This document shows, one piece after another, positions 5,265 through 59,806 of a stretch of 64,000 nucleotides of DNA. How positions within the stretch are numbered: the stretch's first letter is position 1; every line of letters begins with the position of its first letter. The DNA is from a candidate division WOR-3 bacterium (GTDB lineage Bacteria; Hydrothermota; Tepidihabitantia; SM23-42; CAYGYG01): positions 583 through 64,582 of the forward strand of contig CBFGIV010000002.1 of assembly GCA_965648915.1 (NCBI GenBank), written 5' to 3'. The notes beneath the pieces are model-generated. The model was given only the letters and a program-made list of their open reading frames with translations, had not been told where the DNA came from and searched no databases. The position numbers and the translations under genes are program-made.

Positions 5265-5285
5265 AGCAGCAGGTAGGAGGTAGTG

Positions 5286-10572: not shown

Positions 10573-10631
10573 AAACTATCTGATGTCAAGCCAATTTACT
10601 TACTTTTGCCAGATCCCCAGATGGTTAATTC

Positions 10632-10659
10632 TTGACATATCAAGTTTTTTAACTATAAT
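10632..10659 (+). promoter_or_regulatory. Sigma-70-like promoter for topA (TTGACA 10632-10637, TATAAT 10654-10659), positioned to give a leaderless or near-leaderless transcript
   Basis: The -10 box ends 6 nt before the topA ATG at 10666, and there is no room for a Shine-Dalgarno sequence. Confidence 0.4.
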
Positions 10660-10665
10660 AAAGGT

Positions 10666-12697
10666 TATGGCTAAGAAAGCGGTAATTGTTGAATCTCCAA
10701 CCAAGGCAAAGACAATCAAAGGTTTTTTGGGCCGGGATTATCTTGTCTTATCTTCGAGCGGTCACATAAAGGATCTACCAAAATCTAAACTTGGTATAGC
10801 GATCGACAATAATTTTGAGCCGACCTATATTACAATTAAAGGAAAGAAACGGATTATTTCCGAAATTAAAAAGGCGGTCGAGAACAATGTTGATGAAGTG
10901 TATCTGGGTTGTGACCCAGATCGGGAAGGGGAGGCAATTGCTTATCATATTGCCCAGGAATTAAATTCTGATCATAGGTCAGAGACCGGGAAACCTAAAA
11001 TCCACCGTGTCCTCTTTTACGAAATTACCCCTTCCTTTGTCCGTTCAGCCCTTCTCCATCCTACCGATATCAATTTTAAGAAAGTTGATGCCCATAAGGC
11101 AAGAAGGGTGCTGGATCGTATATTTGGCTACTTTACCAGCCCCCTCCTGTGGCGCATATTGAGAAGGGGACTTTCAGCCGGCCGGGTTCAGACGGTCGCT
11201 CTCCGCCTCCTGTGTGAACGGGAAGATGAGATTATTGCTTTCAAGCCTGTTCCTTACTGGGTAGTTGAAGCGATATTCAAAACCCAGGAGAATGTTGAAA
11301 TTAAAACTTCCCTTCATTCAATTAAAGGGAAGAGCCAGCGGATCGAGGATGAGGAGATTTTAGACCAGATAAAGCGGAAACTTAAACCGGGGACCGGATT
11401 TACAATAAAAAAGTTTGAGATTTCGGAAAGGAGACAGCGGCCCGCTCCACCATATATCACCTCAACCCTTCAGCAGGAAGCAATCCGGCGTTTCAATTTT
11501 TCCGCCAGTAAGACAATGCGCATTGCTCAGGCATTATACGAAGGGGTTGAACTTAAAGAGGGTCGAATCGGTCTTATAACCTATATGCGGACTGACTCCC
11601 GGAGGGTGGCCGATGCCGCAATTGCTGAATTAAGACGTTTTATTAGAGACAATTTTAGTAAAGAATATATAAGCCCGACCATACATAAATATAAAGATCG
11701 CAAGACTTCAGAAGGCGCACATGAAGCGATTCGACCGACCAGCATCCTCCGGACGCCGGCATCAGTAAAAGAGTACCTTGATGAAGACCAGTACAAATTA
11801 TATAGTATGATCTACGAAAAGTTTCTTGCCACCCAGATGTCGGATGCGGTCTATAGAGTCAAAGAGGTCATTGTTCAATCACCAGATGGAGAATTTGAAT
11901 TCAGGGCGGTATCTACCCAGTTACAATTCCCGGGATATCTTAAGGCCTTCTCGGATTTCGAAAGATTGAAACCGGCCGAAGAAGATAGCCTCCCTGATCT
12001 TAAGACCGGGGAGAAGGTAACCCTGATTAAACTTATCGACGAAAAGAGGTTTACTGAACCACCGGCTCGATATTCAGAGGCCAGCCTGATCAAGAAACTC
12101 GAAATCAATGGTATCGGGCGCCCCTCCACCTATGCCAAGATTATTCAGACCCTTTTCGATCGACAATATATTGAAAAAGACCGTGGGCGACTTGTGCCCA
12201 CCGAATTGGGCATGACCGTTATCAGGATACTGATAAAGAAATTTTCGAATGTCTTTGATCTCTCCTTTACCGCAGGGATGGAAAAGGAACTCGATATGGT
12301 TGAAGAGGGTGATAAATCCTGGCAGGAGGTGGTAAGAAAATTCTATGAGCCATTTATTATCGATGTTAAAGAGTTTGAATCGGCCTCGGCCGAAATCAAG
12401 AAGAGTTTGATAACTAAAACCGAAAGGACCTGTCCTAAATGCGGAAGCGATTTAATCATCAAATGGGGAAAGTACGGTAAGTTCTACTCCTGCGATAAGT
12501 TTCCCGAATGTAAATATACTGAGCCGATCGAGCAGAAATTGAAGGTTTGCCCTAAGTGTAATAGCCCGATGTTATTAAAGAAAGGAAAATTTGGTCGTTT
12601 CTATGCCTGCACCCGATTCCCGGAATGCAGGCATACTGAAAGATATTCGACCGGGCGTCATTACTATGGGGATTCCAGTGATGGATCCGGGGAATGA
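10666..12697 (+). CDS. topA: DNA topoisomerase I. The ORF-track entry 10403.. is an upstream in-frame extension; the real start is MAKKAVIVESPTKAK at 10666.
   Basis: Toprim N-terminus (VIVESPTKAKTI...GHIKDLP), a catalytic Tyr region, and three C-terminal C4 zinc ribbons (CPKCGSD..., CPKCNSP...). Confidence 0.9.
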
Positions 12698-12723: not shown

Positions 12724-13191
12724 ATGTCCTTAACCTATAGTCTCCAGTGTCTCGAGATGGAAGATGTGAAAGATTTTGAAGTCAGTCCTGAAGAACTCGA
12801 GTTAACCAAACCCCGGGTGAAAGAAAATATCAAGGCACATCTTGAGATACTCAGAGGTAGTAACTTTGTGCGGGTTCAGGGCACAGTCGAAGCAATTATC
12901 ATAACTAACTGTTCAAGATGCCTTGAAGAGATTCTATTTCTAATAAGAGAGAATTTTAAACTTGACTACATATTAGGTAGAGACCCCTATGCATTACGCG
13001 AGCGGGTTGAACTTAAAGATGAAGATATTGATCGGGTTTATTTTCAGGGAGACACAATTGATCTCGGTATCGGCATCCGGGAAACCATTGTTCTGGCCAC
13101 GCCCATTGCGCCGCTCTGCCGACAGGACTGTTCTGGTATCTGCCCCAGGTGCGGGAAGAATCTGAATCAAGGAAAGTGTGAATGCAAATAG
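12724..13191 (+). CDS. YceD/DUF177 family protein (23S rRNA accumulation protein-like)
   Basis: C-terminal CxxC...CxxC motif (CRQDCSGICPRCGKNLNQGKCEC) and a size typical of DUF177 proteins. The usual rpmF/plsX neighbours are absent. Confidence 0.6.
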   Translation: MSLTYSLQCLEMEDVKDFEVSPEELELTKPRVKENIKAHLEILRGSNFVRVQGTVEAIIITNCSRCLEEILFLIRENFKLDYILGRDPYALRERVELKDEDIDRVYFQGDTIDLGIGIRETIVLATPIAPLCRQDCSGICPRCGKNLNQGKCECK

Positions 13192-13303
13192 AAGCAGATT
13201 CTAAAATTCGGCGTTCTAAATATGAAACAAACTATAAATTTTTAAATTTCAATTTTAAAAATTCATCCTTGAGAATTATGCCATCCTGAAGGATTGAGAG
13301 ATT

Positions 13304-13984
13304 ATGTCGATAAGGATTTTAAATCCGGCCGATTTGGCAAAGTTGATCGATCATACGATCCTTAAAACCGAGGCGACGCAAGATGATATTATCCGGCTTT
13401 GCCGCGAAGCTAAGGAATATGGTTTTTATTCAGTCTGTGTCAATCCTTGCTGGATTGATATTGCCCGTAAAAATTTAATCCCAGAAATTAAGATTACGAG
13501 CGTTGTCGGCTTTCCCCTCGGTGCCACTTCGATTGCAAATAAAAAGTTTGAGACACGTGACAATATTGATCGCGGTGCTGATGAAATTGATATGGTTATG
13601 AATGTAGGAAAGTTCAAAAACCGAGATTTAAATTATGTTAAAGATGAGATTGCAACGGTGGTCGAGGCAGCACAAGGCCATATTGTCAAAGTCATCATCG
13701 AAACCTGCCTCCTGACCGATGATGAGAAGAGTCAGGCGGCAAAGATTATAATGGAGTGCGGTGCCCATTTTGTTAAGACCTCAACCGGTTTTAATTTGAG
13801 AGGGGCTGAAGTTGCCGATATCCTGCTCCTGCGTAAAACGGTCGGTCCTGATTTTGGGATAAAGGCATCGGGCGGAATCCGTGACTACAAAACCTGCCTT
13901 TCGATGATTGAGGCCGGTGCCACTCGGATTGGAACCTCGGCCTCGATCAAGATTATCGAAGAGGCGATTAAAAAAAATATTTGA
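13304..13984 (+). CDS. deoC: Deoxyribose-phosphate aldolase
   Basis: DeoC motifs (IDHTILK, VCVNP, VVGFPLG, the Schiff-base Lys region KTSTGF), 226 aa. Confidence 0.85.
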   Translation: MSIRILNPADLAKLIDHTILKTEATQDDIIRLCREAKEYGFYSVCVNPCWIDIARKNLIPEIKITSVVGFPLGATSIANKKFETRDNIDRGADEIDMVMNVGKFKNRDLNYVKDEIATVVEAAQGHIVKVIIETCLLTDDEKSQAAKIIMECGAHFVKTSTGFNLRGAEVADILLLRKTVGPDFGIKASGGIRDYKTCLSMIEAGATRIGTSASIKIIEEAIKKNI

Positions 13985-14022
13985 CATCTTTTAAATTTTG
14001 AATAAAATAGAACAACTTTTTA

Positions 14023-15453
14023 ATGAATATTGAACTTTTGGTTATTTTAACAATCTTTGTCCCAATAATCGGTTCATTGACCATCCCCTTAGCGGGGCTA
14101 ATATCAAAATCGGCCCGTTCTTGCTGGTCGATCCTGTTGGGTGTCGTGACTGCAATTCTTCCCCTCTTATTGATACCGTTTGTCTTAAATGGTGGAGTGC
14201 ATACTTTTGGTCGTCCCCTGACCATGGGAATGGATTTTTACCTGATTGTTGATGGGCTCTCGGTCTTTATGTCTATCGTCTCTTCCTTTATTGGCATGCT
14301 CATTATCGTCTATTCTATCGGTTATGTAAGTCATGATGAGAATCAGAATGAATACTACCTAATGGTCCTTCTCTTCATCGGTTCAATGATGGGATTGGTC
14401 TATTCGGCAAATCTGATATTTATGTACCTCTTCTGGGAGATCACAGCGATCTGCTCCTGGCGACTGGTCGGTTTTTATCGAGACAAGATTCACATTATCA
14501 AGGCGGATAAGACCTTTCTGGTTACATTTTTTGGTGCGGTCGTGATGCTCTTCGGTTTCATTCAGATTTATAATCAGACCCAGACCTTTAATATCCTGTC
14601 GATGCGCGGGACCCTGGTCCCTGGTTCGGCGGTATTACTGATTTTAATCGGAATGTTTGCTAAATCGGCAACCGTGCCGATTCAGACCTGGTTGCCGGAT
14701 GCGGGTGTTGCTCCGAGCACGGTCACAGCATTATTGCATGCAGCGGTCCTGGTCAAGATCGGGGTATATGCCTATGCCCGAATTTTCAATTACACATTTG
14801 CCATCCCGGAGGGCTGGCAGGTTGCTATCCCAATCCTGGCGGTGATTTCCAGTCTGGTCGCGGCCGGTGCAGCAACCGTGGAGAATGACTTAAAGAGAAT
14901 TCTGGCCTATTCCACGGTTAGCCAGATCGGTTACATCTTTCTCGGCCTGAGTGTTCTGGAACCAACAGCAGTTACCGGCGCGATATTATACCTCTTAATG
15001 CACGGCCTGGCCAAAGGCGGATTGTTTCTTTGTGCGGGTATTATCGAACATAATGCTCATACCAAGGATATCCGGCACCTTGGTGGTTTGATAAAAACAA
15101 TGCCCATCACCGCGATTGCTTTTTTAATTTCGGCATTTTCGGTTATTGGTATTCCGCCAATGGGGGGATTCTTTTCAAAATTTATGGTGATCTTTGGAAC
15201 GGTAAAATCGGGCAATGTTGGTCTCGCAGCGGTTGCCCTCTTTACTGCAGTGATGACCGCGTTTTATCTCTATCGGGTCTTCAGTATGGTCTTTCTTGGT
15301 GAGGCAAAGATCACAGTCAAAGAGGGAACAAATTCGATGATCTTTGTTGTTTCGGTCCTTGCCCTTCTTTCAATCCTCACGGGTATTTTTATCACTTACC
15401 CAATGAAATTAGCAAATATTGCAACCCTTGAAATTCTGAGGTTGAAACCATGA
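14023..15453 (+). CDS. Group-4 hydrogenase membrane subunit, Mrp/NuoN/HyfB-like antiporter-type
   Basis: About 14 TM segments and the conserved WLPDAGVAPSTVTALLHAAVLVK motif of the complex-I antiporter superfamily. First gene of the operon. A putative promoter (TTGACA...TAAAAT) overlaps the deoC stop. Confidence 0.8.
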   Translation: MNIELLVILTIFVPIIGSLTIPLAGLISKSARSCWSILLGVVTAILPLLLIPFVLNGGVHTFGRPLTMGMDFYLIVDGLSVFMSIVSSFIGMLIIVYSIGYVSHDENQNEYYLMVLLFIGSMMGLVYSANLIFMYLFWEITAICSWRLVGFYRDKIHIIKADKTFLVTFFGAVVMLFGFIQIYNQTQTFNILSMRGTLVPGSAVLLILIGMFAKSATVPIQTWLPDAGVAPSTVTALLHAAVLVKIGVYAYARIFNYTFAIPEGWQVAIPILAVISSLVAAGAATVENDLKRILAYSTVSQIGYIFLGLSVLEPTAVTGAILYLLMHGLAKGGLFLCAGIIEHNAHTKDIRHLGGLIKTMPITAIAFLISAFSVIGIPPMGGFFSKFMVIFGTVKSGNVGLAAVALFTAVMTAFYLYRVFSMVFLGEAKITVKEGTNSMIFVVSVLALLSILTGIFITYPMKLANIATLEILRLKP

Positions 15454-17330
15454 ACCCCCAGCTACTCTTGGTGCCTATATTGTTGCCCGTATTCCTGGCA
15501 ATCATAACATTTATAATTCCCAGGACGGTAAGAGGGGTGAGAGAAACCATTACCCTCCTTGGCTTGATAATCGGCGTCTATATCGCCTGGTTTCTGTTCG
15601 GTTGCCGGAATTTAACTCTCAGCCTGGACTGGATTGATGGGCTTGGTTTTGACCTGAGGCTCTATCACTTCAGTGGCTTTACCCTTCTCTGGATAAATAT
15701 CTTCGGATTTTTAATATCTCTCTATTCAGTGATAAAAATGGCCAGTCATAAGCGAGTAAATGAATATTATTTATACCTCCTCCTCACCCTCGCTTTTGCT
15801 AATGGCGCAATTCTGGCCGATAATTTCCTTGTTTTATTATTCTTCTGGGAAGGTTTGTTACTGACGCTTTACGGATTTATTACCCTGGGTAGTACGGAAA
15901 ATACGCAGCGCACCGCAATCAAGGCATTCATCATCAACGGTTTTTGCGACTTCTGTATGATCCTCGGAATTTCTATATTCTGGGCGATTACGGGCAAGGC
16001 GAAATTCACGGAGATTGCTCAGAACCCTATCCAGCCTGTTGGTCTGGGTATGGCAAGTTTCATCCTCATCCTGATCGGTGCCTTAGGTAAAGGCGGTTCA
16101 CTCCCCTTCCATACCTGGATTCCGGATGCGGCAATTGATGCGCCGGTTTCGTTTATGGCCTTCTTACCCGGTGCCCTTGAGAAACTTTTGGGCATTTATC
16201 TGGCAAGCAAGGTTGCGCTTGAACTGTTCGTTATTGAGCCGAACAGTCCGATGTCAATTTTAATGATGACGATTGGCGGAATTACGATTGTCCTCGCCGT
16301 CTTGATGGCTTTGATCCAGAAGGATTATAAAAAATTATTGTCCTTTCATGCAATCAGCCAGTATGGTTATATGATTCTCGGGATTGGCACCGCACTACCG
16401 ATTGGTATCGTTGGTGGTATCTTTCATATGCTCAATAATGCGATATACAAATCGGGCCTCTTTATGGTCGCGGGTGCAGTTGAGCATCGGACAGGAACGA
16501 CTGAATTGAAGAGACTGGGTGGACTGAGAGGAGATATGCCGATAACGGCCCTTTGCTATCTTGTGCTGGCCGCAGCGATATCCGGGATCTGGCCCTTAAA
16601 TGGATTTGTATCGAAGGAGATGGTAATACACGGTGCCTACGAGACCGGATTTATAATCTTTGCCCTTTTCGGCTGGGTTGGTGCCATCTTTACCTTTGCT
16701 TCGTTCTTAAAAGCGGGACATTCAATATTTCTCGGTCCGAGGAGCAGAGAGGTTCCGAAGATAAGAGAGTGTGAATCGCCCTTCCTTATTCCAATGGTTA
16801 TAATGGCAATACTCTCGATCATCTTCGGCGTTTATAACTATCTGCCGCTGAAACTCTTTTTAGAACCGATTATTGCAGGTCGGATCATGGCCGGTGAACA
16901 TATTGATATTGATTTTTCCACCCATGCCCTTGACCTGATGAGCCCGATTGCATCAGTTTCGATATTTATGCTTCTTATTGCTCTCTCCATTCACCTCTAC
17001 GGCTGGAACCGGGCCGAGAAGCAGGCGCATCAAGCCTCGGAAGTGATTCATAAACTGCCCATCATCAGAACCCTTTATGATTGGTCAGAGGCGAGATTTT
17101 TTGATATCTATGAGCAGGGAATAAAATTCTTAAAAGGGCTCGCCCGTATGCTATATGTCGCAATAGACAGGCCGGTTGACTATTTCTATGAGAAGATCAT
17201 AACGGTTCCTGGTCAGATAGGCACAAAAATCTTCCAGTATGCCCATAATGGCCATTATGCCAACTATTTAGCTTGGTGTGTTGCGGGATTGGTTATTATT
17301 ATTTATGTCTTACTATCTCTTATAAGGTGA
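15450..17330 (+). CDS. Group-4 hydrogenase membrane subunit, NuoL/MrpA-like antiporter-type (long form)
   Basis: FHTWIPDAAIDAPVSFMAFLPGA motif. 626 aa with a C-terminal extension. ATGA overlap with the upstream gene. Confidence 0.8.
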   Translation: MNPQLLLVPILLPVFLAIITFIIPRTVRGVRETITLLGLIIGVYIAWFLFGCRNLTLSLDWIDGLGFDLRLYHFSGFTLLWINIFGFLISLYSVIKMASHKRVNEYYLYLLLTLAFANGAILADNFLVLLFFWEGLLLTLYGFITLGSTENTQRTAIKAFIINGFCDFCMILGISIFWAITGKAKFTEIAQNPIQPVGLGMASFILILIGALGKGGSLPFHTWIPDAAIDAPVSFMAFLPGALEKLLGIYLASKVALELFVIEPNSPMSILMMTIGGITIVLAVLMALIQKDYKKLLSFHAISQYGYMILGIGTALPIGIVGGIFHMLNNAIYKSGLFMVAGAVEHRTGTTELKRLGGLRGDMPITALCYLVLAAAISGIWPLNGFVSKEMVIHGAYETGFIIFALFGWVGAIFTFASFLKAGHSIFLGPRSREVPKIRECESPFLIPMVIMAILSIIFGVYNYLPLKLFLEPIIAGRIMAGEHIDIDFSTHALDLMSPIASVSIFMLLIALSIHLYGWNRAEKQAHQASEVIHKLPIIRTLYDWSEARFFDIYEQGIKFLKGLARMLYVAIDRPVDYFYEKIITVPGQIGTKIFQYAHNGHYANYLAWCVAGLVIIIYVLLSLIR

Positions 17331-17340
17331 AGAGGAATTT

Positions 17341-18810
17341 ATGATTGTGCTCTTTATTATCCTCCCCTTTGTCCTGGCGGCAGTTCTGCCCCTGATTGAA
17401 AAATTGTCCCGTCGGTTTCTTCCGGATCTATTAACCAATGCGGGGATTCTCTTTTTACTTATCTATACAATCGGCCCAGCCCGGCAGATGTTCGGTGCCC
17501 GGCAACTACAGTGGTTTAACGAACCATTGAATATGGTTATCAGCCTTGATAGTTTCAGTCTCTTTATCCTTTTCACCATCTATCTGGTAAGTTTTGGAGT
17601 TACACTCTTCTCGATTGACTATATGGAGCATTATACATCGAAGGGGATCTTCTATGCCCTCTTCTTAATCATGATTGGTGGGATGAGCGGGCTGGTCTTG
17701 GCGGTGGATCTATTTACAATCTATATCTTTCTTGAGATTGCAGCCATCTCTTCATACGGACTTGTTGCCTATGGCCTGGGCCACGATGAACTGGAGGCAT
17801 CATTCAAATATCTGATGCTCTCGGCAGTAGCGACGGCGTTCTTGCTATTAGGAATTACTCTCATTTTTGGGATTTCCGGCAATCTCCAACTGGATAGTAT
17901 CGCCCGGACATTTGCGGCGGGTGAACTTAAATCTATTCTCAGTGTCTGTATCGGATTCTTCATCTTTGGTTTTGGTCTGAAGGCAGCGCTGGTACCTTTC
18001 CATTCCTGGCTGCCCGATGCCCACCCCAGTGCACCGGCACCGATCTCGGCGATGCTTTCTGGTCTGTTGATAAAAGTCTCCGGGGTATATGCATTGACCA
18101 GGATTTTCCTGAATGTTTTTGGCCTGACCCCGGCCCTTTCCGGATTGCTGATGTATCTCGGCATCATCTCCATTCTGGTTGGTGCCTTACTCGCCCTCGG
18201 TCAGAGTGACATAAAACGGATGCTCGCATATTCATCGATCAGTCAGGTTGGTTATATCATTCTTGGTATCGGTGCGGGAACGAAGTTTGCACTGATGGGT
18301 GCATTATTCCATATATTGAACCATGCTCTGGCTAAAGGGTTGTTGTTTTTGAATTCTGGTTCAGTTGAGCATGCCACCGGCACCAGGGATTTAAATAAGA
18401 TGGGTGGTCTGGGCCGGAAGTTACCGGTTACTACCGCAACTTCGGTTGTTGGTTCACTGGCAGTTAGTGGCGTCCCACCCTTAAATGGATTCTGGAGCAA
18501 ATTATTCATCATTATCGGTCTGTTTGAAGCCCGGGCCTACGGTTTTGCCTTTATCGCCATCCTGGCAAGTGTGGTTACACTATGGTATTATATAATAATC
18601 CAGCGTCGGGCCTTCTTTGGCAAATTGAATCAGACCTGGCGAGAGGTGAAAGAGGTTCCTTTCTGGATGGCACTTTCGACGATATTTATTGCCCTGGTCT
18701 GTATCATATTTGGTATTGCATTTCCGTTTATCCTGTCGAAATGGATAGCACCGGCGGCGGCGATCTTGAAAGCGGGTGTTTTATCCAGCGTTCACAATCT
18801 GGGACTTTAG
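17341..18810 (+). CDS. Group-4 hydrogenase membrane subunit, NuoM/MrpD-like antiporter-type
   Basis: HSWLPDAHPSAPAPISAMLSGLLIK motif, 489 aa. Confidence 0.8.
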   Translation: MIVLFIILPFVLAAVLPLIEKLSRRFLPDLLTNAGILFLLIYTIGPARQMFGARQLQWFNEPLNMVISLDSFSLFILFTIYLVSFGVTLFSIDYMEHYTSKGIFYALFLIMIGGMSGLVLAVDLFTIYIFLEIAAISSYGLVAYGLGHDELEASFKYLMLSAVATAFLLLGITLIFGISGNLQLDSIARTFAAGELKSILSVCIGFFIFGFGLKAALVPFHSWLPDAHPSAPAPISAMLSGLLIKVSGVYALTRIFLNVFGLTPALSGLLMYLGIISILVGALLALGQSDIKRMLAYSSISQVGYIILGIGAGTKFALMGALFHILNHALAKGLLFLNSGSVEHATGTRDLNKMGGLGRKLPVTTATSVVGSLAVSGVPPLNGFWSKLFIIIGLFEARAYGFAFIAILASVVTLWYYIIIQRRAFFGKLNQTWREVKEVPFWMALSTIFIALVCIIFGIAFPFILSKWIAPAAAILKAGVLSSVHNLGL

Positions 18811-18828
18811 GAGTTAATATGCAGGCGT

Positions 18829-19304
18829 TATATTTAATATCCTTATGCGGACTGACTCTATTCTCTATCTTTGCAATATTGAGCAAGGATCTGCTCAAGG
18901 CGGCACTCAGTCTGATGGCGGCGAGTATCTTTCTTGCCGTCGTATTCTTTTTTATGCGCGCCTATTATGCGGGTGTATTTGAGATTTCGGTGGTGGCCGG
19001 TTTGATTACAGTCCTTTTTGTCTCAACCATAGGTTTGACCCGGGGCGAAGATGTGGCCGAGAGTAAATTACCGCGTATCATCTTTCCTTTATTCTTTATC
19101 TGGTTTATTGCTCTCGACCTCTTGATTATGTATGCGCTTTTGAGTAAATATTCACTTTCCCAGACCCGGGTCCAGGAAGCGGCCGGTTTTGGCCAGATCT
19201 TCTGGACCAAAAGGACTTTTGACCTCGTCGGCCAGATTGGCATAATCTTTGCCGGGGTCTTCTCGGTTTTAGCCCTGTTCCGAAAGAGAGATAAGAATGG
19301 TTAA
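18829..19304 (+). CDS. MrpB/MnhB-domain small membrane subunit. The ORF-track entry 18582.. runs through the previous gene; the start is taken at the ATG at 18829, which has a GGAG RBS.
   Basis: Four predicted TM helices and an MnhB-like pattern (MQALYLISLCGLTLF...). Confidence 0.55.
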
Positions 19305-19614
19305 TCTGATCAGTGACTGGTATTTTAATATTGCCTTCTGTGGAATACTCTTCTTTATTGGATTATACTGTCTTCTTTCGATGCGGAATCTAATTAAACT
19401 TCTAATCGGGATTGAGGTTATTGCCAAAGGTATCACCCTGGCGATAATCTCAACCGCCAATGCTAAGGGGTTTATCTTTACCGGACAGTGTTTAGCGATT
19501 ACTTTTATTGTGATTGAGGTTAGTGTCGTGGCGGTTGCCCTCGCAATCATCATTAACATATATCGACACACCCGCAGTCTTGACATTAGAAAATTGACGA
19601 AGTTGAAAGGATAA
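19297..19614 (+). CDS. NuoK/MrpC-like small membrane subunit
   Basis: 105 aa with three TM helices. Motif LIKLLIGIEVIAKGITLAII resembles NuoK/MnhC. Confidence 0.6.
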   Translation: MVNLISDWYFNIAFCGILFFIGLYCLLSMRNLIKLLIGIEVIAKGITLAIISTANAKGFIFTGQCLAITFIVIEVSVVAVALAIIINIYRHTRSLDIRKLTKLKG

Positions 19615-19617
19615 TAA

Positions 19618-19944
19618 ATGATTGATATCCTGATTGCCCCACCTATCGCCTTTATAATCTTTCTGGGCATTTTCTATCTTATCTATGGACTTGGTAGTTT
19701 AATTGCGCCTAAATTTAAAAAGACTCCGGGTAAGAGTGCAACTTATGTATGTGGTGAAGATATCCCCGGAACCAAGGTGCAGTTCGGTTATCGTCTCTTC
19801 TTCTATGTGGCTTTGTTCTTCACAATGATGCATGTGGCAGCGCTGGTTGTGGCGACAATCCCCTCGGGAAAGGTCGCCCTTTTTGGCATATTTTATCTGG
19901 CAATGATATTTTTGTCAGTGGTTGCATTAATTACAAGGAGATAG
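19618..19944 (+). CDS. NuoA/MbhI-like small membrane subunit
   Basis: 108 aa. The YVCGEDIPG...F..FF..ALFF pattern is reminiscent of NuoA. Confidence 0.45.
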   Translation: MIDILIAPPIAFIIFLGIFYLIYGLGSLIAPKFKKTPGKSATYVCGEDIPGTKVQFGYRLFFYVALFFTMMHVAALVVATIPSGKVALFGIFYLAMIFLSVVALITRR

Positions 19945-19945
19945 G

Positions 19946-20365
19946 ATGTTAAGCTGGCTTGTGCGATGGTCGAGGATAAAGTCACCCTGGGTATTGCATT
20001 TGAATACCGGTGCCTGCAATGCCTGTGATATTGAAATCCTTGCAGCACTTATGCCGAGATTTGACCTGGAAAGGTTTGGTGTTTTATTAAAGGCAACACC
20101 AAGGCATGCGGATGTGATTGTCTGTACCGGTCCGATGACGAGGCTAAGCCGGGATAGAATGGTGAGAATCTATGAACAGGTGCCTGAACCGAAGTTTGTA
20201 GTTGCGGTTGGCGCCTGTGCAATGAGTGCTTGTGTTTATCGTGGTTGTTATAATATCATCGGTGGTATTGACCAGGTTCTCCCAGTCCATGCCTATATCC
20301 CGGGTTGTCCAGTCCGTCCGGATGCAGTGATTGATGGGGTTTATAAGTTGTTGAAGACATTATGA
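19946..20365 (+). CDS. [NiFe]-hydrogenase small subunit, NuoB/HycG/MbhJ-like
   Basis: Four Cys for the proximal [4Fe-4S] cluster (TGACNACDIE, GACAMSAC, PGCPVRP), 139 aa. Confidence 0.85.
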   Translation: MLSWLVRWSRIKSPWVLHLNTGACNACDIEILAALMPRFDLERFGVLLKATPRHADVIVCTGPMTRLSRDRMVRIYEQVPEPKFVVAVGACAMSACVYRGCYNIIGGIDQVLPVHAYIPGCPVRPDAVIDGVYKLLKTL

Positions 20366-20847
20366 TTGAGGAAGATATGAGCGAAACAGAACTTTTAGAA
20401 AAGATCAAACAGGGCTTGAAAGAAAAAATTTTAGAAATAACCAATCCCGCCTCAAGAAGAATCTTTCTAAAGGTTGATAAGAAAAACCTTGTTGAGGCAG
20501 TACAGTTTTTAAAAGAGAGATTTAATTTTTATCATATTTCTACCATCTCCGGTGTCGATCTGGGTGAGAATTTTGAAATATTATATCATCTTGCCAATGA
20601 AAATTGTGTATTGACTGTGCGGACACTGACACCGAGAAATGACCCGAAGGTACCAACAATCACCGGTGTTATCCCTGGTGCCACGCTTTATGAAAGAGAG
20701 ATACAGGATATGTTTGGAATAAAGGTTGAAGGCCATCCCAATCCAGTGCGCCTTTTGCTTGCTGATGACTGGCCTGAAGGTGTTTATCCATTGCGTAAGG
20801 ACTGGAAATTTGAGCGTCCTGAAGAAAAAATCCCGGGAGGTAAATAA
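20362..20847 (+). CDS. NuoC/MbhK-like hydrogenase subunit
   Basis: ERE..DMFGIKVEGHP motif, 161 aa, start overlapping the upstream stop. Confidence 0.8.
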   Translation: MIEEDMSETELLEKIKQGLKEKILEITNPASRRIFLKVDKKNLVEAVQFLKERFNFYHISTISGVDLGENFEILYHLANENCVLTVRTLTPRNDPKVPTITGVIPGATLYEREIQDMFGIKVEGHPNPVRLLLADDWPEGVYPLRKDWKFERPEEKIPGGK

Positions 20848-22058
20848 TGGAGGCTCAGGAGTTTAAGGTCCCAATCGGTCCACAACATCCCGCCTTAAAA
20901 GAGCCAGTAAGCCTGCGGATGACACTCGAAGGCGAGATAATTAAAGATGCAGATTTACGGCTGGGATATAATCACCGGGGTATTGAAAAACTTGCGGAAT
21001 CAAGGACTTATATCCAGAATATATATTTGACTGAACGTATCTGTGGAATCTGCTCCCATTCTCACACCACCTGTTTTGTTCAGGGGGTTGAAAAACTTAT
21101 GGAGATTGAACCAGCAAAGAGAGGCTTATATATCCGCACCCTTGTTGCTGAGTTAGAGCGTATCCATAGCCATCTGCTCTGGCTCGGTGTTGCGGGGCAT
21201 GAGGCAGGTTTTGATACATTCTTTATGTATACCTGGCGCGACCGTGAACTGGTAATGGATATCCTTGAAATCATTTCGGGTAACCGTGTCCACTATGCGA
21301 TAAATACCTTTGGCGGAGTGAGGAGAGACCTTGACGAATTACAGATAAAGAAGTGTCTTGATTATCTTGAGATTTTGAAAAATCGCACTGCATATTATGC
21401 AAATATCGGAACCAATGAGCCGACATTTGTTGCAAGGCTCGCTGGTGTAGGTAAATTACCCAAGGAAAAGGCATTAGAACTCTGTGCAGTAGGGCCGACC
21501 TTAAGAGCCTCAGATATCCCAAGGGATGTGCGCAAGGATGATCCATACGCCTCCTACGCTGAGATCCCTTTTGAGGTCTGCACTGCCGATACCTGTGATG
21601 TCCTGGGACGGGTCGTCGTTCGGGTAAAAGAATTGTTTGAGTCTTATAAGATTTGCGAATATATATTAAAGAATTTACCTTCGGGCCCGATAAAGGTAAA
21701 GGCCCCGAGGAAGGTTAAACCCGGTGAAGTAGTGAGTAAATATGAGGCACCCCGGGGTGAGAATATTCATTATATTAAGTCTAACGGCAGTGATAAACCA
21801 GAAAGATTAAAGGTGCGTGCACCGACACTTGGCAATTATGCTGCAACGATATATATGTTAAAGAATGGATTTATTGCCGATATCCCATTGATCTTTGCAG
21901 CCATTGACCCCTGTATTTGCTGTGCGGAGCGGTTGATCCAGATTGATGATATAAAGACAAAGAAATCCAAGATTATGACAATGGCGGAATTGCGTAAATG
22001 GTCAATTGAATTTTATAAAAAGAATCCGGTGAAGAAGGAAATAATATGGCCATTTTGA
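20847..22058 (+). CDS. Group-4 [NiFe]-hydrogenase large (catalytic) subunit (HycE/MbhL/EchE-like)
   Basis: N-terminal RICGICSHSH (RxCGxC) and C-terminal DPCICCAER (DPCxxC) Ni-Fe ligand motifs are both present. Complex-I NuoD lacks these motifs. A ~40-aa C-terminal extension follows the DPCxxC motif. Confidence 0.85.
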   Translation: MEAQEFKVPIGPQHPALKEPVSLRMTLEGEIIKDADLRLGYNHRGIEKLAESRTYIQNIYLTERICGICSHSHTTCFVQGVEKLMEIEPAKRGLYIRTLVAELERIHSHLLWLGVAGHEAGFDTFFMYTWRDRELVMDILEIISGNRVHYAINTFGGVRRDLDELQIKKCLDYLEILKNRTAYYANIGTNEPTFVARLAGVGKLPKEKALELCAVGPTLRASDIPRDVRKDDPYASYAEIPFEVCTADTCDVLGRVVVRVKELFESYKICEYILKNLPSGPIKVKAPRKVKPGEVVSKYEAPRGENIHYIKSNGSDKPERLKVRAPTLGNYAATIYMLKNGFIADIPLIFAAIDPCICCAERLIQIDDIKTKKSKIMTMAELRKWSIEFYKKNPVKKEIIWPF

Positions 22059-22062
22059 AAGA

Positions 22063-22188
22063 GGATATCAGGTCATCGGGGTATCGGGAAGAAGGATATC
22101 AGGTAAACAGAATATCGGGTAATTATGACCCTCTGATCTCCTGGTATTCTGATATTCACTCCCTGATAATCTGTTGTCCTGATAATCT
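22063..22188. repeat. Repeat-rich intra-operon spacer. Two 26-nt imperfect direct repeats (GGATATCAGGT-N9-ATCGGG, starting at 22063 and 22094), plus two CCTGATAATCT copies (22162 and 22178).
   Basis: Read directly from the sequence. The motifs CTGATAT and CTGATAA recur in both orientations, and GATAAT hexamers are Fur-box-like. Confidence 0.5.
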
Positions 22189-22212
22189 TGTTAACAAAAG
22201 TGGAGTTGGAAA

Positions 22213-23181
22213 ATGGATATCTTAAAGACAATACTTTATCTCCTGATCTATCCTGGTTTTCTCTTTCTCTTTCTCTATTCGACATTCTGTGAGTGGGTAG
22301 ATAGAAAATTCTATGCGCGTTTGCAGAATCGAATTGGGCCTCTATATACTGGCCCACGTGGACTATTACAGCCAATAGCCGATTTCATTAAACTGATGGC
22401 AAAAGAAGATATTATTCCGGAGAAGGCAGATCGGGGAATGTTTTCCGCATTGCCAGTCTTCGCCTTAGCGGTTGTCGCCACGGCGGCGATGTATTTACCG
22501 GTCTGGCATTATAAATCAGATCCTACTTTTAACTCATTTCCGGGCGATTTAATATTGATCCTGTTCTTACTGAGTTTACCGACCCTCGCCTTTTTCCTTG
22601 CCGGCTGGCATTCAACGAATCTATTTTCTATTGTTGGTGGTGTGCGTGTATTGACGATGCTATTCGGTTATGAGGTGCCTTTATTCTTAGCAGTATTGAG
22701 TCCGGCAATCCTGGCTGGTTCCTGGCGGCTTCTCGAGATTACCTGGTTTTATCAGAAGACCCCGCTCCTCCTCCTGGTTAATATCATCGGTTTCTTTGTT
22801 TCGCTGGTTGCCCTGCAGGCAAAACTGGAGAGAGTCCCATTCGATGTTCCTCATGCTGAGACCGAGATTGTGGGTGGGACATTCACTGAATATTCAGGCA
22901 AAAAACTTGCTTTTTTCAGATTACTCTCAGATATCGAGATGGTTGTTGGTGCAGGTTTGATTGCTGCGGTATTTTTAGGTGGTTTCCCGGGCGGACTGAT
23001 CTGGGGTGTTATAAATTTTATCATTAAGACTTTAATCGTTATCCTGCTCCTTTCTGCAATCAGGGCGGTCTGTGCCCGGATCCGGATTGACCAGGTTGTA
23101 TCTTTCTCCTGGCGTTATCTGGCACCTCTCGCAGTTCTTCAGTTATTGATTGTGATAGTTGTAAAATCTCTATCCTATTAA
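22213..23181 (+). CDS. NuoH/HyfC/MbhM-like membrane subunit
   Basis: RLQNRIGPLYTGPRGLLQPIADFIKL is a NuoH signature. 322 aa with 8 TM helices. GGAG RBS upstream. Confidence 0.85.
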   Translation: MDILKTILYLLIYPGFLFLFLYSTFCEWVDRKFYARLQNRIGPLYTGPRGLLQPIADFIKLMAKEDIIPEKADRGMFSALPVFALAVVATAAMYLPVWHYKSDPTFNSFPGDLILILFLLSLPTLAFFLAGWHSTNLFSIVGGVRVLTMLFGYEVPLFLAVLSPAILAGSWRLLEITWFYQKTPLLLLVNIIGFFVSLVALQAKLERVPFDVPHAETEIVGGTFTEYSGKKLAFFRLLSDIEMVVGAGLIAAVFLGGFPGGLIWGVINFIIKTLIVILLLSAIRAVCARIRIDQVVSFSWRYLAPLAVLQLLIVIVVKSLSY

Positions 23182-23194
23182 GGGAGAAATCAGT

Positions 23195-23581
23195 ATGAAG
23201 ATAGCCGCCTTTTTGCCGGAACTGATCAGACACATCTTCAAAAAACCGGCCACAGTTAAATATCCTTTTGAGAAACTCGAAGTCCCGAAGGATTTCCGGG
23301 GAACACCGATACTCTATCCGGAGAAGTGTATTGTCTGTTATGCCTGCCAGCGCGACTGCCCGGCTGAGGCGATTGAAATAACAACGGTAAACGAGGCCGA
23401 GAAAAAATACAAGATGGTAATTCACAATGATCGCTGTGTCCATTGTGAGCAGTGTGCCGAATCCTGTCCGGTTGATGCCATAAGATTGAATACTGAGTTT
23501 GAACTCGCTGCCTTCAGTCGATGGGATTTGAAGGCTGAGTATATCTACATCAAGGCCACCCCTAAGTCTAAAACCGAATAA
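23195..23581 (+). CDS. 2x[4Fe-4S] ferredoxin-type subunit (NuoI/HycF/MbhN-like)
   Basis: Two CxxCxxCxxxCP motifs (CIVCYACQRDCP, CVHCEQCAESCP). Confidence 0.85.
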   Translation: MKIAAFLPELIRHIFKKPATVKYPFEKLEVPKDFRGTPILYPEKCIVCYACQRDCPAEAIEITTVNEAEKKYKMVIHNDRCVHCEQCAESCPVDAIRLNTEFELAAFSRWDLKAEYIYIKATPKSKTE

Positions 23582-23665
23582 GATTCAATATTTTAAACCC
23601 CTTGACTCAGGATTACCTTAAGGTATAATCTACGGCTGATCAATTTTATAGGCAGGAGGTTATCT

Positions 23666-24271
23666 GTGTTATCATCTTTTTTATTTATAACATCGATCTT
23701 ATCAGAATTGCCTTTTTCAATCAGTATTGGCGGCAAGGTAACGAGATACTGGGGAGATTTTGCTATCAGGTCCGAATATGTAGATACGGTAGCCGGTCAC
23801 CATTATATTAAAGAGGATGTGATCACCGAGAATTATAAAGGTGGTAGCATCGAACTCCTGATCGGCTATAGGGAGAGAATCTATCTGCGCACCGAGATCA
23901 TCGAATTACGCCTTTTTGACCGCCGCGGCACATCGACCAACTTCGGACAGAATCTTGATACCGACTTTTTCTTTGCCCAACCGATTGGTCCAAAGATCAG
24001 TCCCTATATTGCTGCGGGTATTGGCATTGAAAAATTTGAAGGCGCCCGCGATGTTATCGATCCCCGCTTCGTCGAAGGGGCACGCTATGAGATTCGCGGT
24101 GGTATAGGTATCAACTATAAACTGAGAAGTCATATCATATTATTTGTCGAGAGCCAGTGGTATGAAAATATAAAGATCATCAGAACGGGAAAGGATGCAA
24201 TACTGGTTGAATCTTATAATTCAGAGGCGATAGATCTGGTCCGGCTCAATGGAGGAGTGAGAATCCGGTAA
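23666..24271 (+). CDS. Hypothetical protein, possibly an outer-membrane beta-barrel (GTG start)
   Basis: The N-terminus looks like a signal peptide, and amphipathic beta-strand patterns alternate along the protein (GIGINYKL, ARYEIRGG). No family is recognised. Confidence 0.3.
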   Translation: MLSSFLFITSILSELPFSISIGGKVTRYWGDFAIRSEYVDTVAGHHYIKEDVITENYKGGSIELLIGYRERIYLRTEIIELRLFDRRGTSTNFGQNLDTDFFFAQPIGPKISPYIAAGIGIEKFEGARDVIDPRFVEGARYEIRGGIGINYKLRSHIILFVESQWYENIKIIRTGKDAILVESYNSEAIDLVRLNGGVRIR

Positions 24272-24291
24272 GCGGCTGGAGATTTTCGCCG

Positions 24292-25668
24292 ATGAAGTAT
24301 TTAATCTTCATTACCTTGATTGGTTTGATTTATTCTTCGGGTGTTTTTGCTTCTTTTCTTAAACTGCCCTATCTTCAGAATCTGCTCGATACCAGTGTTG
24401 TCATCAGATGGGAGACAATAACGGCTCAGGATGGAAAGGTCCAGTATGGATTGAGCATTCTGTATGGTTTGGAAGTGACCCATCTCGATTCAACCACCCA
24501 GCATGAATTGAGGCTTCCGTCACTGATGCAGGATACTGTCTACCATTACCGAGTAATTTCCGGACCTGACACAAGCCCGGACTACACCTTTCATTCCCCG
24601 GTTAAGCCCGATAAGCCTTTCCGTTTTGCGGTCATCGGTGACACGAGAACCGACAGCCTTGCCCACCAGATGGTCATCGATCAATTGCTCAGGGGAGATC
24701 CCAGGCCCGCATTCATTCTCAATACCGGTGATCTTACGGAGAATGGTGCATCATCAGAATATCAGACATTTTTTAATATTGAGAGTTCGCTCCTTTCACA
24801 GGTCTGTCTCTTCCCGGCGCTGGGCAACCACGATCTGGGAAACATAATCAACTGGCATACCTTTTTTGCCTTACCCAATAATGAACGGTGGTATACATTT
24901 CGTTATGGCAACTCAGTATTTCACTGTATCGATAACTATTCACCCTATACCAATGATTCTCCTCAATATAACTGGCTGGTGAATGAACTCTTATCTGACA
25001 GCGCCGATCCGACCATCAGGCATATCTTTGTATTTTTTCATGATCCACCCTATTCTACAAATCTTGCCCACTCGAGCAACCTCACAATCCGGGAGTATCT
25101 CTGCCCTCTCTTTGAGCGGTTTAATATCACTTTCTCATTTCAGGGGCATAATCACTGTTATGAAAGGAGTGTGGTCAATAATATCCATTATACCGTTTCT
25201 GGTGGTGGCGGTGCGCCACTCCATTTCTTCTGGGGTTCTCTCGAGCCCTGGTCCGCCTACCGGGAGACAACTTATGAATTTGTTCTGATCGATATCTGTG
25301 GTGATACAATCTCCTCTCAGGGGATCAAACCGACCGGTGAGACTTTTGATCACTTTTCTATAATTCATCGGCCAGAGCCCGATAGGACCAACCGGTTAAT
25401 CCTCCCGTATAACCCCCGACTCAGAATTTTCCCCAATCCCGCGACCGGGGAGATCAGAATTACCTTTGCTCTTCAGACTCAGGGAATGGTGGATATTTCA
25501 ATTTACAATAGTTCAGGACAGAAGATCGGTTCGGTTATTAAAAAAAATCTTCCGGTCGGTCTTCACAAACTGATCTGGCGCAAGAAGTCTCTTGCCAGTG
25601 GAACTTATCTCTGCTTCTTGAATACACCAACCTTTTCTCAATCGGTCAGTTTCAGATTTATTAGATAA
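24292..25668 (+). CDS. Calcineurin-like metallophosphoesterase (purple-acid-phosphatase-like) with T9SS C-terminal sorting domain
   Basis: Metallophosphatase motifs (FAVIGDTRTD, NTGDLTENG, GNHD, GHNHCYER) and a CTD (RIFPNPATGEIRITF...IYNSSGQKIG...GTYLCFL). Confidence 0.75.
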   Translation: MKYLIFITLIGLIYSSGVFASFLKLPYLQNLLDTSVVIRWETITAQDGKVQYGLSILYGLEVTHLDSTTQHELRLPSLMQDTVYHYRVISGPDTSPDYTFHSPVKPDKPFRFAVIGDTRTDSLAHQMVIDQLLRGDPRPAFILNTGDLTENGASSEYQTFFNIESSLLSQVCLFPALGNHDLGNIINWHTFFALPNNERWYTFRYGNSVFHCIDNYSPYTNDSPQYNWLVNELLSDSADPTIRHIFVFFHDPPYSTNLAHSSNLTIREYLCPLFERFNITFSFQGHNHCYERSVVNNIHYTVSGGGGAPLHFFWGSLEPWSAYRETTYEFVLIDICGDTISSQGIKPTGETFDHFSIIHRPEPDRTNRLILPYNPRLRIFPNPATGEIRITFALQTQGMVDISIYNSSGQKIGSVIKKNLPVGLHKLIWRKKSLASGTYLCFLNTPTFSQSVSFRFIR

Positions 25669-27749: not shown

Positions 27750-28622
27750 ATGAAGGAGACGGGTCAAAAGATGCACCGAAGAACCTTTTTAAAAATCTTC
27801 GGTTTTTTAACACCGATAATTCTCTTCCTGGGGAAGATCCCTTTTGCCCTGGCTGGTAAATGGGAGAAGGGCAAGATTAATTACTGGGTCGGTAAGAGTT
27901 TTAAGCAGAATAATGTCGATTTATCAAAATTGAGCAAGGGGATAATCCATGCCCGGATTAATGGAAAATGGGATGACTATCAGATCCAGCCCCTGAGTGA
28001 TTCTTTTATTGAATGGAATTTAACAAGCCGGCTCAAGGGCCTTGAACGAATTAAAAGCGGGGCAATGCCTGACCTGAGCGGTCCCCATTCGGGTGCGGTC
28101 GCAACTTATGGTGGCTACCGTCTCGACTCCCGGGTCACCATCAACAATGCGATAAAGGGTATAGGTTGTGCACCGAGAGCAGATCGGGTTGAATCTATGA
28201 TTAAGAGATTAAAAGCGACAATTAAATATTCAATGCCGGAAAAGATCGATATTTTAAAATCTTTCTATCAGGACCGGAATCTATTTGACTGGACCAAACA
28301 GACTTCGCTTGAGTTATATACCCAGCCCGATTTTGAGACCCATACCTTTCTTAATTTGATGGAGAATCCAATTGCATCGATTGTCTTTCTTGATAACCCT
28401 TCATTTGAGATAAGGGCAATAACCCGGCTGGTTCATCCTGATGACCGGACTGCATCTAAAGATGAGAGGAATCTCTTGGAATATGTCAATCTGATTCACA
28501 GCTATTTCCATGGTCAATTCAAAAAGGTTTTCATTCTTATGGTATTTTATGTAATTGAACTATTTGATAACAGCCCGGGTAAGATGAAGGGCATCAGAAT
28601 TGTTCCACCATTGTCCGAATAG
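27750..28622 (+). CDS. Hypothetical exported protein with a twin-arginine (Tat) signal
   Basis: N-terminal HRRTFLK followed by a hydrophobic stretch, a canonical S/T-R-R-x-F-L-K match. No recognisable catalytic family. Confidence 0.5.
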   Translation: MKETGQKMHRRTFLKIFGFLTPIILFLGKIPFALAGKWEKGKINYWVGKSFKQNNVDLSKLSKGIIHARINGKWDDYQIQPLSDSFIEWNLTSRLKGLERIKSGAMPDLSGPHSGAVATYGGYRLDSRVTINNAIKGIGCAPRADRVESMIKRLKATIKYSMPEKIDILKSFYQDRNLFDWTKQTSLELYTQPDFETHTFLNLMENPIASIVFLDNPSFEIRAITRLVHPDDRTASKDERNLLEYVNLIHSYFHGQFKKVFILMVFYVIELFDNSPGKMKGIRIVPPLSE

Positions 28623-35549: not shown

Positions 35550-35585
35550 AATCTTTGAGATTAAAACTTTTTATCCGATGATTCT

Positions 35586-35858
35586 TCATTCTCTTTGTTG
35601 TTTCTTTGTCAAGTGCTTCCGTGCCCGGGCACCATTAGCCATGACAAGATAGATACGGTTACTTAAAATCGGGTCTGGAACAGGAAATAAAATCTTTTCT
35701 CCTTTCTTTAGCGTTTTAATTTTATCCTGTAATACTTCAGTCACATCAACCGAGATATTTCCGGCATTGCGCTCTGCCCAGCCCTTTTGCCAGAGGAATT
35801 TGCCGATTTCGCCGATCTCATCAATGATCTTTTTCAATTCAGGATTTTTCATAGACAA
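35586..35858 (-). pseudogene. rhaD: Truncated remnant (N-terminal ~90 aa) of rhamnulose-1-phosphate aldolase (class II aldolase/adducin family)
   Basis: KGWAERNAGNISV matches RhaD KGWDERNGGNLTL. Only 36 nt separate its stop from the rhaB start, so the C-terminal two-thirds, which carry the Zn-binding His residues, are absent. Confidence 0.55.
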
Positions 35859-35859
35859 T

Positions 35860-37911: not shown

Positions 37912-37914
37912 TAT

Positions 37915-54204: not shown

Positions 54205-54215
54205 CGGAGGCCAAA

Positions 54216-57564: not shown

Positions 57565-59806
<2,242 letters not shown>

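Follow-up and report, generated by a model that had tools for sequence, protein, structure and literature searches.

A putative 11-subunit membrane-bound group 4 [NiFe]-hydrogenase with complex I-like membrane subunits in a candidate division WOR-3 bacterium

The DNA examined here is a stretch of 64,000 nucleotides (nt), hereafter the window, from contig CBFGIV010000002.1 of a candidate division WOR-3 bacterium, and our results indicate that a run of eleven genes within it, P1 to P11, probably encodes an 11-subunit membrane-bound group 4 [NiFe]-hydrogenase that would use reduced ferredoxin to evolve H2 and couple this reaction to proton export. Respiratory complex I is regarded as a descendant of energy-converting hydrogenases, and in the solved examples of the latter (Mbh, formate hydrogenlyase and MBS) the membrane arm is reduced or differently assembled. 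In the family described here, a hydrogenase catalytic module occurs together with equivalents of all complex I membrane subunits. A first-pass annotation had placed 11 co-directional genes between positions 14023 and 23581 of the forward strand, and listing and translating the open reading frames (ORFs) confirmed that this interval is filled exactly by 11 such ORFs, most of them overlapping. The tight coupling claimed for them also held, with neighbouring genes overlapping by 1-8 nt or lying 1-13 nt apart, except for P9 and P10, which are separated by 154 nt. Subunits were assigned with Pfam and NCBIfam models, and the family profiles and conservation counts given below were derived from orthologues of each subunit. 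The genes, with protein lengths in amino acids (aa), are:

14023-15453, + strand: P1, antiporter-like, 476 aa, resembling the N-terminal part of NuoL, HyfD and MrpA, without the C-terminal extension
15450-17330, + strand: P2, NuoL-type antiporter-like, 626 aa, with a predicted C-terminal lateral helix and final transmembrane (TM) helix
17341-18810, + strand: P3, antiporter subunit resembling MrpD, MbhH and NuoM/N, 489 aa
18819-19304, + strand: P4, NuoJ-like, 161 aa, a putative fusion of MbhD (residues 12-79) and MbhE (102-154)
19297-19614, + strand: P5, NuoK/MrpC/MbhG-like, 105 aa
19618-19944, + strand: P6, NuoA/ND3-like with three helices, 108 aa, at the gene position of MbhI
19946-20365, + strand: P7, hydrogenase small subunit, NuoB-like, 139 aa, one predicted [4Fe-4S] cluster
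20362-20847, + strand: P8, NuoC-like, 161 aa, encoded separately from the large subunit
20847-22058, + strand: P9, putative [NiFe]-hydrogenase large subunit, 403 aa
22213-23181, + strand: P10, NuoH/MbhM-like membrane anchor, 322 aa
23195-23581, + strand: P11, NuoI/MbhN-like 2x[4Fe-4S] subunit, 128 aa, the presumed electron entry point

P4 was taken to start at 18819, where it is called in a second assembly of this organism (GCA_039802405.1); the long ORF has its first ATG already at 18582 and overlaps P3. Family matches are significant (Pfam E 1.8e-72 to 8e-09) for all genes of the cluster but P6.

The assignment of P9 as the large subunit of a group 4 energy-converting [NiFe]-hydrogenase, and not of complex I or of the Mbx/MBS type, is supported by several features of its predicted protein. 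It matches the Pfam families Complex1_49kDa and NiFeSe_Hases and carries the ligand motifs RICGICSHSH and DPCICCAER, in which Cys66/Cys69 and Cys356/Cys359 are the ligands; without exception, the 81 family sequences compared keep these four cysteines as well as His73 and Arg362. Arg362 is followed by a C-terminal extension of 41 residues that aligns with the propeptide of HycE, and the alignment of the two proteins runs on through the part that HycI removes. Among chains in the Protein Data Bank (PDB), P9 scored best with Pyrococcus furiosus MbhL (295 bits) and E. coli HycE (293), followed by Nqo4 (217) and MbsL (6u8y_L, 182), while its score on the NCBIfam NuoD model (335) fell under the cut-off of 360. 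The first-pass annotation had regarded the cluster as encoding a true hydrogenase rather than complex I, citing the RICGIC and DPCICC motifs, and had also noted the four cysteines of the NuoB-like protein and the 2x[4Fe-4S] nature of P11. All of these are present in the translations, and the conserved ligands, the propeptide, the pattern of P9 scores and a position outside the clade that lacks the cysteines uphold that view.

The remaining subunits of the catalytic module agree with this picture. P7 belongs to Pfam Oxidored_q6 (E 1.8e-27) and lies above the cut-off of a NuoB subfamily model, and its Cys24-x-x-Cys27, Cys91 and Cys121 are invariant in 70/70 orthologues. The NuoB of complex I has two adjacent cysteines, in contrast to the CxxC of P7. 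P8 was matched by Complex1_30kDa (E 1.6e-34), P10 by NADHdh (E 1.6e-83) and P11 by Fer4 families, the last with two CxxCxxCxxxCP motifs whose eight cysteines are invariant in 79/79 sequences. A NuoH-like anchor, antiporter-like subunits and a 2x[4Fe-4S] subunit thus occur together in the cluster, as group 4 hydrogenases require. Pfam and NCBIfam scans detected no NuoE-, NuoF- or NuoG-like gene in the cluster or the rest of the window, as had been claimed before, and no gene for formate dehydrogenase, CO dehydrogenase or a NuoEFG-type input module within the cluster.

Three antiporter-type subunits had been described for the membrane arm, and indeed P1, P2 and P3 all match Proton_antipo_M. The match of P1 (E 1.8e-68) is accompanied by one to Proton_antipo_N, and its scores on the NCBIfam HyfD and NuoL models are both about 306 bits, under the cut-off of each. 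P3 matches Proton_antipo_M with an E of 1.8e-72 and scored 349 bits on NCBIfam PRK08376 and 285 on HyfB. The charged residues typical of NuoL, NuoM and NuoN channels, known from work on complex I, are a Glu in TM5, a Lys in TM7, a Lys or His in TM8 and a Lys in TM12. All three proteins have these residues, which are near-invariant across the family: Glu139 (TM5), Lys214 (TM7), His239/Lys245 and Lys331 (TM12) of P1 are kept in 57-59 of 59 orthologues, Glu134, Lys214, Glu244/Lys245 and Lys334 of P2 are conserved among its orthologues, and Glu132, Lys214, Lys245 and Lys332 of P3 are invariant in 64/64. P2 appears to be of the full NuoL type with a lateral helix. Its family profile aligned end to end with mycobacterial NuoL (query 10-617, target 12-623), and an AlphaFold2 model built on an alignment of database homologues (mean predicted local distance difference test score 83.9, predicted template-modelling score 0.82) places helices in residues 531-598, including one of 46 residues, ahead of a terminal TM helix at 603-625. 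The model superposes over its full length on NuoL, ND5 and NdhF (TM-scores ~0.8), better than on MbsH'.

The small membrane proteins required some revision of labels. P4 had been called MrpB-like, but its sequence is better explained as a fusion of MbhD and MbhE, which is to say a five-helix, NuoJ-like protein. This label was chosen because the profile of 36 orthologues matched MbhD (E 7e-10), MbsD (1e-9) and NuoJ (2.6e-7) and because the two halves of P4 match two consecutive genes of Methanoregula; the single protein matched Pfam Oxidored_q3 (E 8e-9) and MbhD (E 3.6e-5), and its Glu56 is invariant in the family. P5 is matched by Oxidored_q2 (E 5.2e-20) and passes the NCBIfam NuoK cut-off (59.4 vs 57), with its membrane glutamates Glu40 and Glu74 present in 62/66 and 66/66 orthologues. 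P6 taken alone gave weak scores, with an E of 3e-4 for Oxidored_q4, below the Pfam cut-off, and 0.015 for ND3. When a profile of 38 orthologues was searched against the PDB, all the chains matched at E<=1 were NuoA, ND3 or NdhC (21 in total, best E 3e-4); Mbh and MBS chains, MbhI included, went undetected at that threshold. The loop Y43-x-C45-G46-E47-D48 of P6 has Y43, G46 and E47 invariant and C45 in 65/67 sequences, and the protein is 40% identical to the product of a 109-aa Methanoregula gene that occupies the MbhI position, just ahead of a NuoB-like gene.

The family is widespread. A search with P9 over 1.84 billion representatives clustered at 50% identity returned 9095 related clusters. 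Among database sequences, P9 has more than 8000 relatives at E<=1e-20, and the 120 clusters ranked first share 74-93% identity with it. The closest come from metagenome-assembled genomes (MAGs) of WOR-3, and many more from Aminicenantes/Saccharicenans, Omnitrophota and Ratteibacteria. Conservation is unusually high, with large-subunit identity of 70-93% across several candidate phyla. P2 is 100% identical to a database protein annotated as coming from a candidate division WOR-3 bacterium. The order of the 11 genes is the same in 80/80 related genome loci from WOR-3, Aminicenantes, Omnitrophota and Ratteibacteria, including three Omnitrophota loci (L053, L056 and L057) whose large subunit is 74% identical to P9. 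Public annotations often name the proteins of this family NuoD or NuoL, and in a literature search with little coverage of subscription journals we found no purification or assay of a member of the family and no description of this 11-subunit architecture in WOR-3 or Aminicenantes.

A neighbour-joining tree was built from full-length representatives, MbhL and HycE over 360 well-aligned columns of the mature region, with 200 bootstraps. The large subunits of the family form a clade of their own in 200/200 replicates, and the large subunits of the Methanoregula-type Mbh-like cluster (~55% identity) appear as its sister with weak support (116/200). The family joined the P. furiosus MbhL clade in 0/200 replicates, and three named clades were monophyletic without it, namely MbhL (183/200), HycE (171/200) and the Cys-less Fpo/Nuo clade anchored by Methanosarcina FpoD (190/200). 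The first-pass annotation had proposed a phylogeny of the large subunit as one check on its hydrogenase reading, and both the exclusion of P9 from the Fpo/Nuo clade and the weakness of its MbsL match bear that reading out. Deeper nodes were unsupported (22/200 and lower) and our claims are for this reason limited to the family clade, its weakly supported sister and its exclusion from the named clades. A more distant relative (L081, ~55% identity) has the matching gene order over its 8.5-kb contig, from the second antiporter gene onward, and also hycI. Three full-length proteins that group with P0156 near the family in the tree (P0189, P0245 and P0258) have lost both Ni-Fe cysteine motifs, a sign that hydrogenase chemistry may have been abandoned independently in this part of group 4. 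In locus L083, positions 8626-12675 hold P0160 (376 aa, without the C-terminal Cys motif) in a seemingly decaying copy of the cluster. This copy comprises a gene for a fused NuoJ+NuoB-like protein (298 aa), what is left of NuoC (71 aa) and a truncated NuoH-like gene, and antiporter genes are missing upstream of it. In the Omnitrophota MAG locus L053, a second, smaller group 4 cluster (15483-19052) follows the 11-gene cluster after ~3 kb, with NuoH-, NuoB-, NuoC-, large-subunit- and ferredoxin-like genes whose products are 32-52% identical to the window proteins.

The nearest named relative of the large subunit, the uncharacterised Mbh-like cluster of Methanoregula (L084/L085), has homologues of P4-P11, three antiporter-like modules, no adjacent MrpE/F/G-type genes and the same B-C-D-H-I order. 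It differs from the cluster described here in having its small membrane genes first, where the window has its antiporter genes first, in its separate MbhD and MbhE, fused in P4, in the joining of two antiporter modules into one protein of 1094 aa, where the window has three separate proteins, and in an adjacent hycI after the B-C-D-H-I genes, which in the window lies elsewhere. The P. furiosus Mbh (14 subunits, PDB 6CFW, HydDB group 4d) provides the best solved match of P9 and, with MbhD, of P4; equivalents of its hydrogenase module J, K, L, M and N are present, and its chemistry runs from ferredoxin to H2. It has one antiporter-like subunit, however, against three in the window, and its sodium module of MbhA, B, C and F (the equivalents of MrpE, F, G and B) has no counterpart in the cluster, with MrpE, F and G families also giving no match in the flanks (Pfam and NCBIfam). 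A P. furiosus-type Mbh was rejected on these grounds and on its different clade.

E. coli Hyf shares the number of antiporter-like subunits, and the Hyc/Hyf group (PDB 7Z0S, group 4a) shares the full-length HycE match, propeptide included, and presumably maturation by a HycI-type protease. Unlike P8 and P9, however, the NuoC- and NuoD-like parts are fused in HycE and HyfG, and Hyf and Hyc have additional ferredoxin-like subunits, formate dehydrogenase H as a partner, no NuoA-like subunit and a separate clade. A Hyf type was also rejected, since the large subunit is unfused, formate-side genes are missing and the clade is another. The earlier label of Mbh/Hyf-like therefore stands as a loose likeness, but the cluster has neither the MrpE/F/G/B module of the one nor the NuoCD fusion and formate genes of the other, and falls in neither clade. 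MBS and Mbx have lost the large-subunit cysteines that P9 retains.

Complex I offers the fullest comparison. Each of its 11 core subunits (NuoA, B, C, D, H, I, J, K, L, M and N), which NDH-1 and Fpo also have, is matched by one protein of the cluster, and the likeness extends to the NuoL lateral helix, the NuoJ-like protein, both NuoK glutamates and the Y-x-C-G-E/D loop of NuoA. The two differ at NuoD, where complex I has a quinone pocket and P9 a predicted Ni-Fe site, and in gene order, which in the window is L/M/N-like, J, K, A, B, C, D, H and I. A survey from 2011 concluded that NuoA and NuoJ were seemingly absent from all hydrogenases (PMC3144371), and later structural work showed that MbhD/E and MbhI fill the NuoJ and NuoA roles in Mbh (PMC8165549); judging from its proteins, the present family makes the NuoA/NuoJ link to hydrogenases visible at the level of sequence. 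The label group 4g has been given to membrane hydrogenases of Omnitrophota and Cloacimonadota MAGs, which were read as ferredoxin-dependent, H2-evolving and ion-pumping (PMC8542988). Group 4g of HydDB, ferredoxin-coupled and of unknown function, is described as a loosely clustered, polyphyletic catch-all (PMC5037454; PMC13582414), and other enzymes placed in it have an Ech2-like organisation. The three Omnitrophota loci named above carry the cluster found in the window, and the present family may belong to this group.

Maturation of a large subunit with a propeptide brings in the protease gene hycI, which in most loci of the family directly follows the P11 homologue as a twelfth gene. In seven loci, including L039, L042, L043, L056, L057 and L067, the cluster is followed by hycI-hypA-hypB-hypF-hypC-hypD-hypE, an order verified with Pfam for L039. 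An adjacent hycI is missing in the window and its nearest relatives (L001-L007). A hidden Markov model (HMM) built from 57 hycI genes of the family located instead a fragment at the right edge of the window:

63853-63999, - strand: 3' end of a hycI-like gene, covering the last 41 profile positions and 8 further residues, cut off at the edge of the window

This fragment matched positions 119-159 of the 159-position model (E 3e-10), and of the 1110 segments obtained by six-frame translation of the window no other gave a significant match. The fragment is separated from the hydrogenase operon by ~40 kb and lies, in the direction of transcription, just upstream of the atp operon. The cluster had been described as complete, which is correct for the structural genes but not for the protease gene, which seems to have moved away from the operon in this organism. 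In locus L008 (CAYGYG010000009.1), hycI is found ~4.4 kb downstream of the cluster, a placement intermediate between adjacent and distant hycI. The same locus shares topA-yceD-deoC synteny with the window upstream of the cluster (58-66% identity). A gene of the AIRS family at 28635-29633 was considered as hypE and rejected, as it is purM (341 bits). Exact matches to AtpB, AtpA, the c subunit and P2 were confined to short contigs of assembly GCA_039802405.1, and a metagenome scan with AtpB yielded relatives of <=70% identity alone, with no hycI or hyp gene upstream of them.

The cluster lies directly downstream of deoC (13304-13984), as reported in the first-pass annotation, and the promoter-like element said to overlap the deoC stop was also recovered. 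Two non-coding features were noted in and around the operon:

13981-14008, + strand: sigma-70-like match TTGACA-16-TAAAAT, 11/12 to the consensus, overlapping the deoC stop
22059-22212, + strand: intergenic insert between P9 and P10, 154 nt, with a repeated GGATATCAGG motif

The promoter-like match is joint best in 13000-24400 and ends 14 nt upstream of the first ATG, and no obvious Shine-Dalgarno sequence precedes P1. In the insert the motif AGGATATCAGGT is present twice, and the sequence folds as a long imperfect hairpin (-50.3 kcal/mol, z -2.96). Of the 79 other family loci, 71 lack the insert, most of them having the two genes in contact or overlapping, and among WOR-3-like relatives it is variable, being similar in L001 and L003, with unrelated inserts in L005/L007 and L008. 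It is lineage-specific and may be an element of mRNA processing or stability, or a small hot spot for insertions. A repeated mobile element was rejected, given that the core motif occurs just twice in the window, both times inside the insert, with one further match at 1 mismatch, and no evidence of a dispersed repeat of this motif was seen within the window.

From these data a mechanism can be proposed. Reduced ferredoxin from fermentation would deliver electrons to the 2x[4Fe-4S] subunit P11. By way of the one [4Fe-4S] cluster in P7 the electrons would then reach the Ni-Fe site of P9, at which H2 would be formed from protons. Coupling of the redox reaction to the membrane would run through the NuoA-like loop of P6, the P10 anchor, P4 and P5, and the membrane arm, with P1, P2 and P3 clamped by the lateral helix of P2, would export protons. 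The F-type ATP synthase encoded in the window could use the resulting gradient. The c subunit of that enzyme (MSPEAL...ILKFL) is without the Gln and Ser/Thr residues that make up the sodium-binding signature of ATP synthase c subunits, which suggests that it is coupled to protons. The sequences and models show directly the gene set and its order, the metal-ligand motifs and charged membrane residues with their conservation, the propeptide, the NuoL-type fold of P2 and the linkage of the family to hycI and hyp genes, and from these we infer the ferredoxin donor, the H2-evolving direction, protons over sodium, the ion stoichiometry, the number of pumping modules and their arrangement around the anchor.

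Several points weigh against this proposal. The free energy available from ferredoxin to H2 is small, and three pumping modules would be hard to reconcile with forward operation except at very low H2 or with fewer than three of them pumping. The NuoA assignment of P6, with its best E of 3e-4, appears to be the weakest among the 11 subunits. No hyp genes were found in the window, either by Pfam and NCBIfam scans of ORFs of >=150 aa or by tblastn with the hyp genes of L039, which gave nothing significant except the hycI fragment at the edge, and of hycI that fragment alone is visible. The candidate promoter is a pattern match to the consensus alone, and the sigma-70 consensus may not suit this phylum.

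The energetic puzzle of three pumping modules is what keeps alive the opposite direction, in which the enzyme would take up H2 and use the proton-motive force, with several protons flowing inward through the three modules, to reduce low-potential ferredoxin. Eha/Ehb and Ech of methanogens work in this H2-uptake direction. Three conserved antiporter modules would suit the high ion-to-electron ratio of such an uphill reaction, the sister clade comes from a methanogen (Methanoregula), and a phylum-wide study attributes hydrogenotrophic potential to WOR-3 (PMC12542636). However, the window has the features of a polymer and sugar degrader, with peptidases tagged for type IX secretion and rhamnose and galactoside genes, which fits fermentation with surplus reductant, and nothing in it needs additional reduced ferredoxin. 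We consider H2 uptake unlikely on balance. Group 4 enzymes are generally reversible, and the direction is not settled by sequence.

A Hyf-type formate hydrogenlyase, in which formate oxidation would be coupled to H2 evolution and ion pumping, could draw on the three antiporter-like subunits, on the HyfD and HyfB scores of P1 and P3 and on the propeptide that P9 shares with HycE. It is nevertheless highly improbable: all Hyf model scores are under their cut-offs, P9 is not fused to NuoC and stands outside the HycE clade, and no HycB/HyfA-like or FdhF-like gene was seen in or beside the cluster of the window or in the flanks of six related loci and of L081 and L083-L085. Farther still from what the data suggest is a complex without hydrogenase activity, either an 11-subunit complex I/NDH-1-like ferredoxin:quinone oxidoreductase or an Mbx/MBS sulfane reductase that has kept ancestral cysteines. 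Counterparts of all 11 core subunits, the NuoD score of P9, a P7 above the NuoB subfamily cut-off and the public NuoD and NuoL annotations could be read in this way, but the NuoD score stays under its cut-off, the Ni-Fe cysteines, His73 and Arg362 show no exception in the family, P9 keeps a propeptide of the kind cleaved by a protease, MbsL is the weakest match among the solved relatives, and the linkage of hycI and hyp genes to the cluster in relatives would be senseless without a Ni-Fe cofactor. Ferredoxin-driven H2 evolution with proton export thus continues to be the reading we favour.

If this function is correct, the complex would be a main H2 route for disposal of reductant and for energy conservation in these uncultured fermenters, whose candidate phyla dominate anoxic sediments and digesters and whose proteins of this family are abundant in public MAG data under generic annotations. 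It is also conceivable, though doubtful, that the family is the living hydrogenase with the membrane arm nearest to that of complex I, given its 11 subunits with a NuoA-type coupling loop, a fused NuoJ and a NuoL lateral helix that would span three proton channels, and with a Ni-Fe site that still works. If the modules are arranged as in complex I, and not as in Mbh, it would stand for the state immediately preceding the change of the active site from protons to quinone, and one could test directly how many ions are moved through three modules by a redox reaction of very low energy. With the proposed function, the family would also be a good structural target for studying the evolution of coupling. 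The window itself adds one well-preserved member to it, corrects two subunit labels and shows a displaced protease gene.

Other genes of the window give an outline of the organism. The F-type ATP synthase operon (57565-63453, - strand) encodes subunits a, c, b, delta, alpha, gamma and beta, with epsilon further down. The sorting domain of the type IX secretion system (Por_Secre_tail) is found on four secreted enzymes (11-1927, 5283-7616, 24292-25668 and 42638-44269), which comprise two C25 (gingipain-like) peptidases, a metallophosphoesterase resembling purple acid phosphatase and an M28 peptidase. A sugar block on the - strand (32793-42462) contains genes for L-rhamnose isomerase, two FGGY kinases, a beta-galactosidase-like protein of glycoside hydrolase (GH) families GH35/GH42, a TIM barrel protein resembling xylose isomerase and a GH106 alpha-L-rhamnosidase-like protein. 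At 53371-57105 (+) a TolQ/ExbB-like gene occurs with two ExbD genes and two tandem paralogues with a TonB C-terminal domain (251 and 252 aa), and a further TonB_C domain forms part of a fusion with a family-5 solute-binding protein at 30146-32230. Two ORFs have no Pfam or NCBIfam match, one of 290 aa at 27750-28622 (+) and one of 201 aa with a GTG start at 23666-24271 (+), directly after the hydrogenase operon; the latter is preceded by a second strong promoter-like match, TTGACT-16-TATAAT, at 23602-23629.

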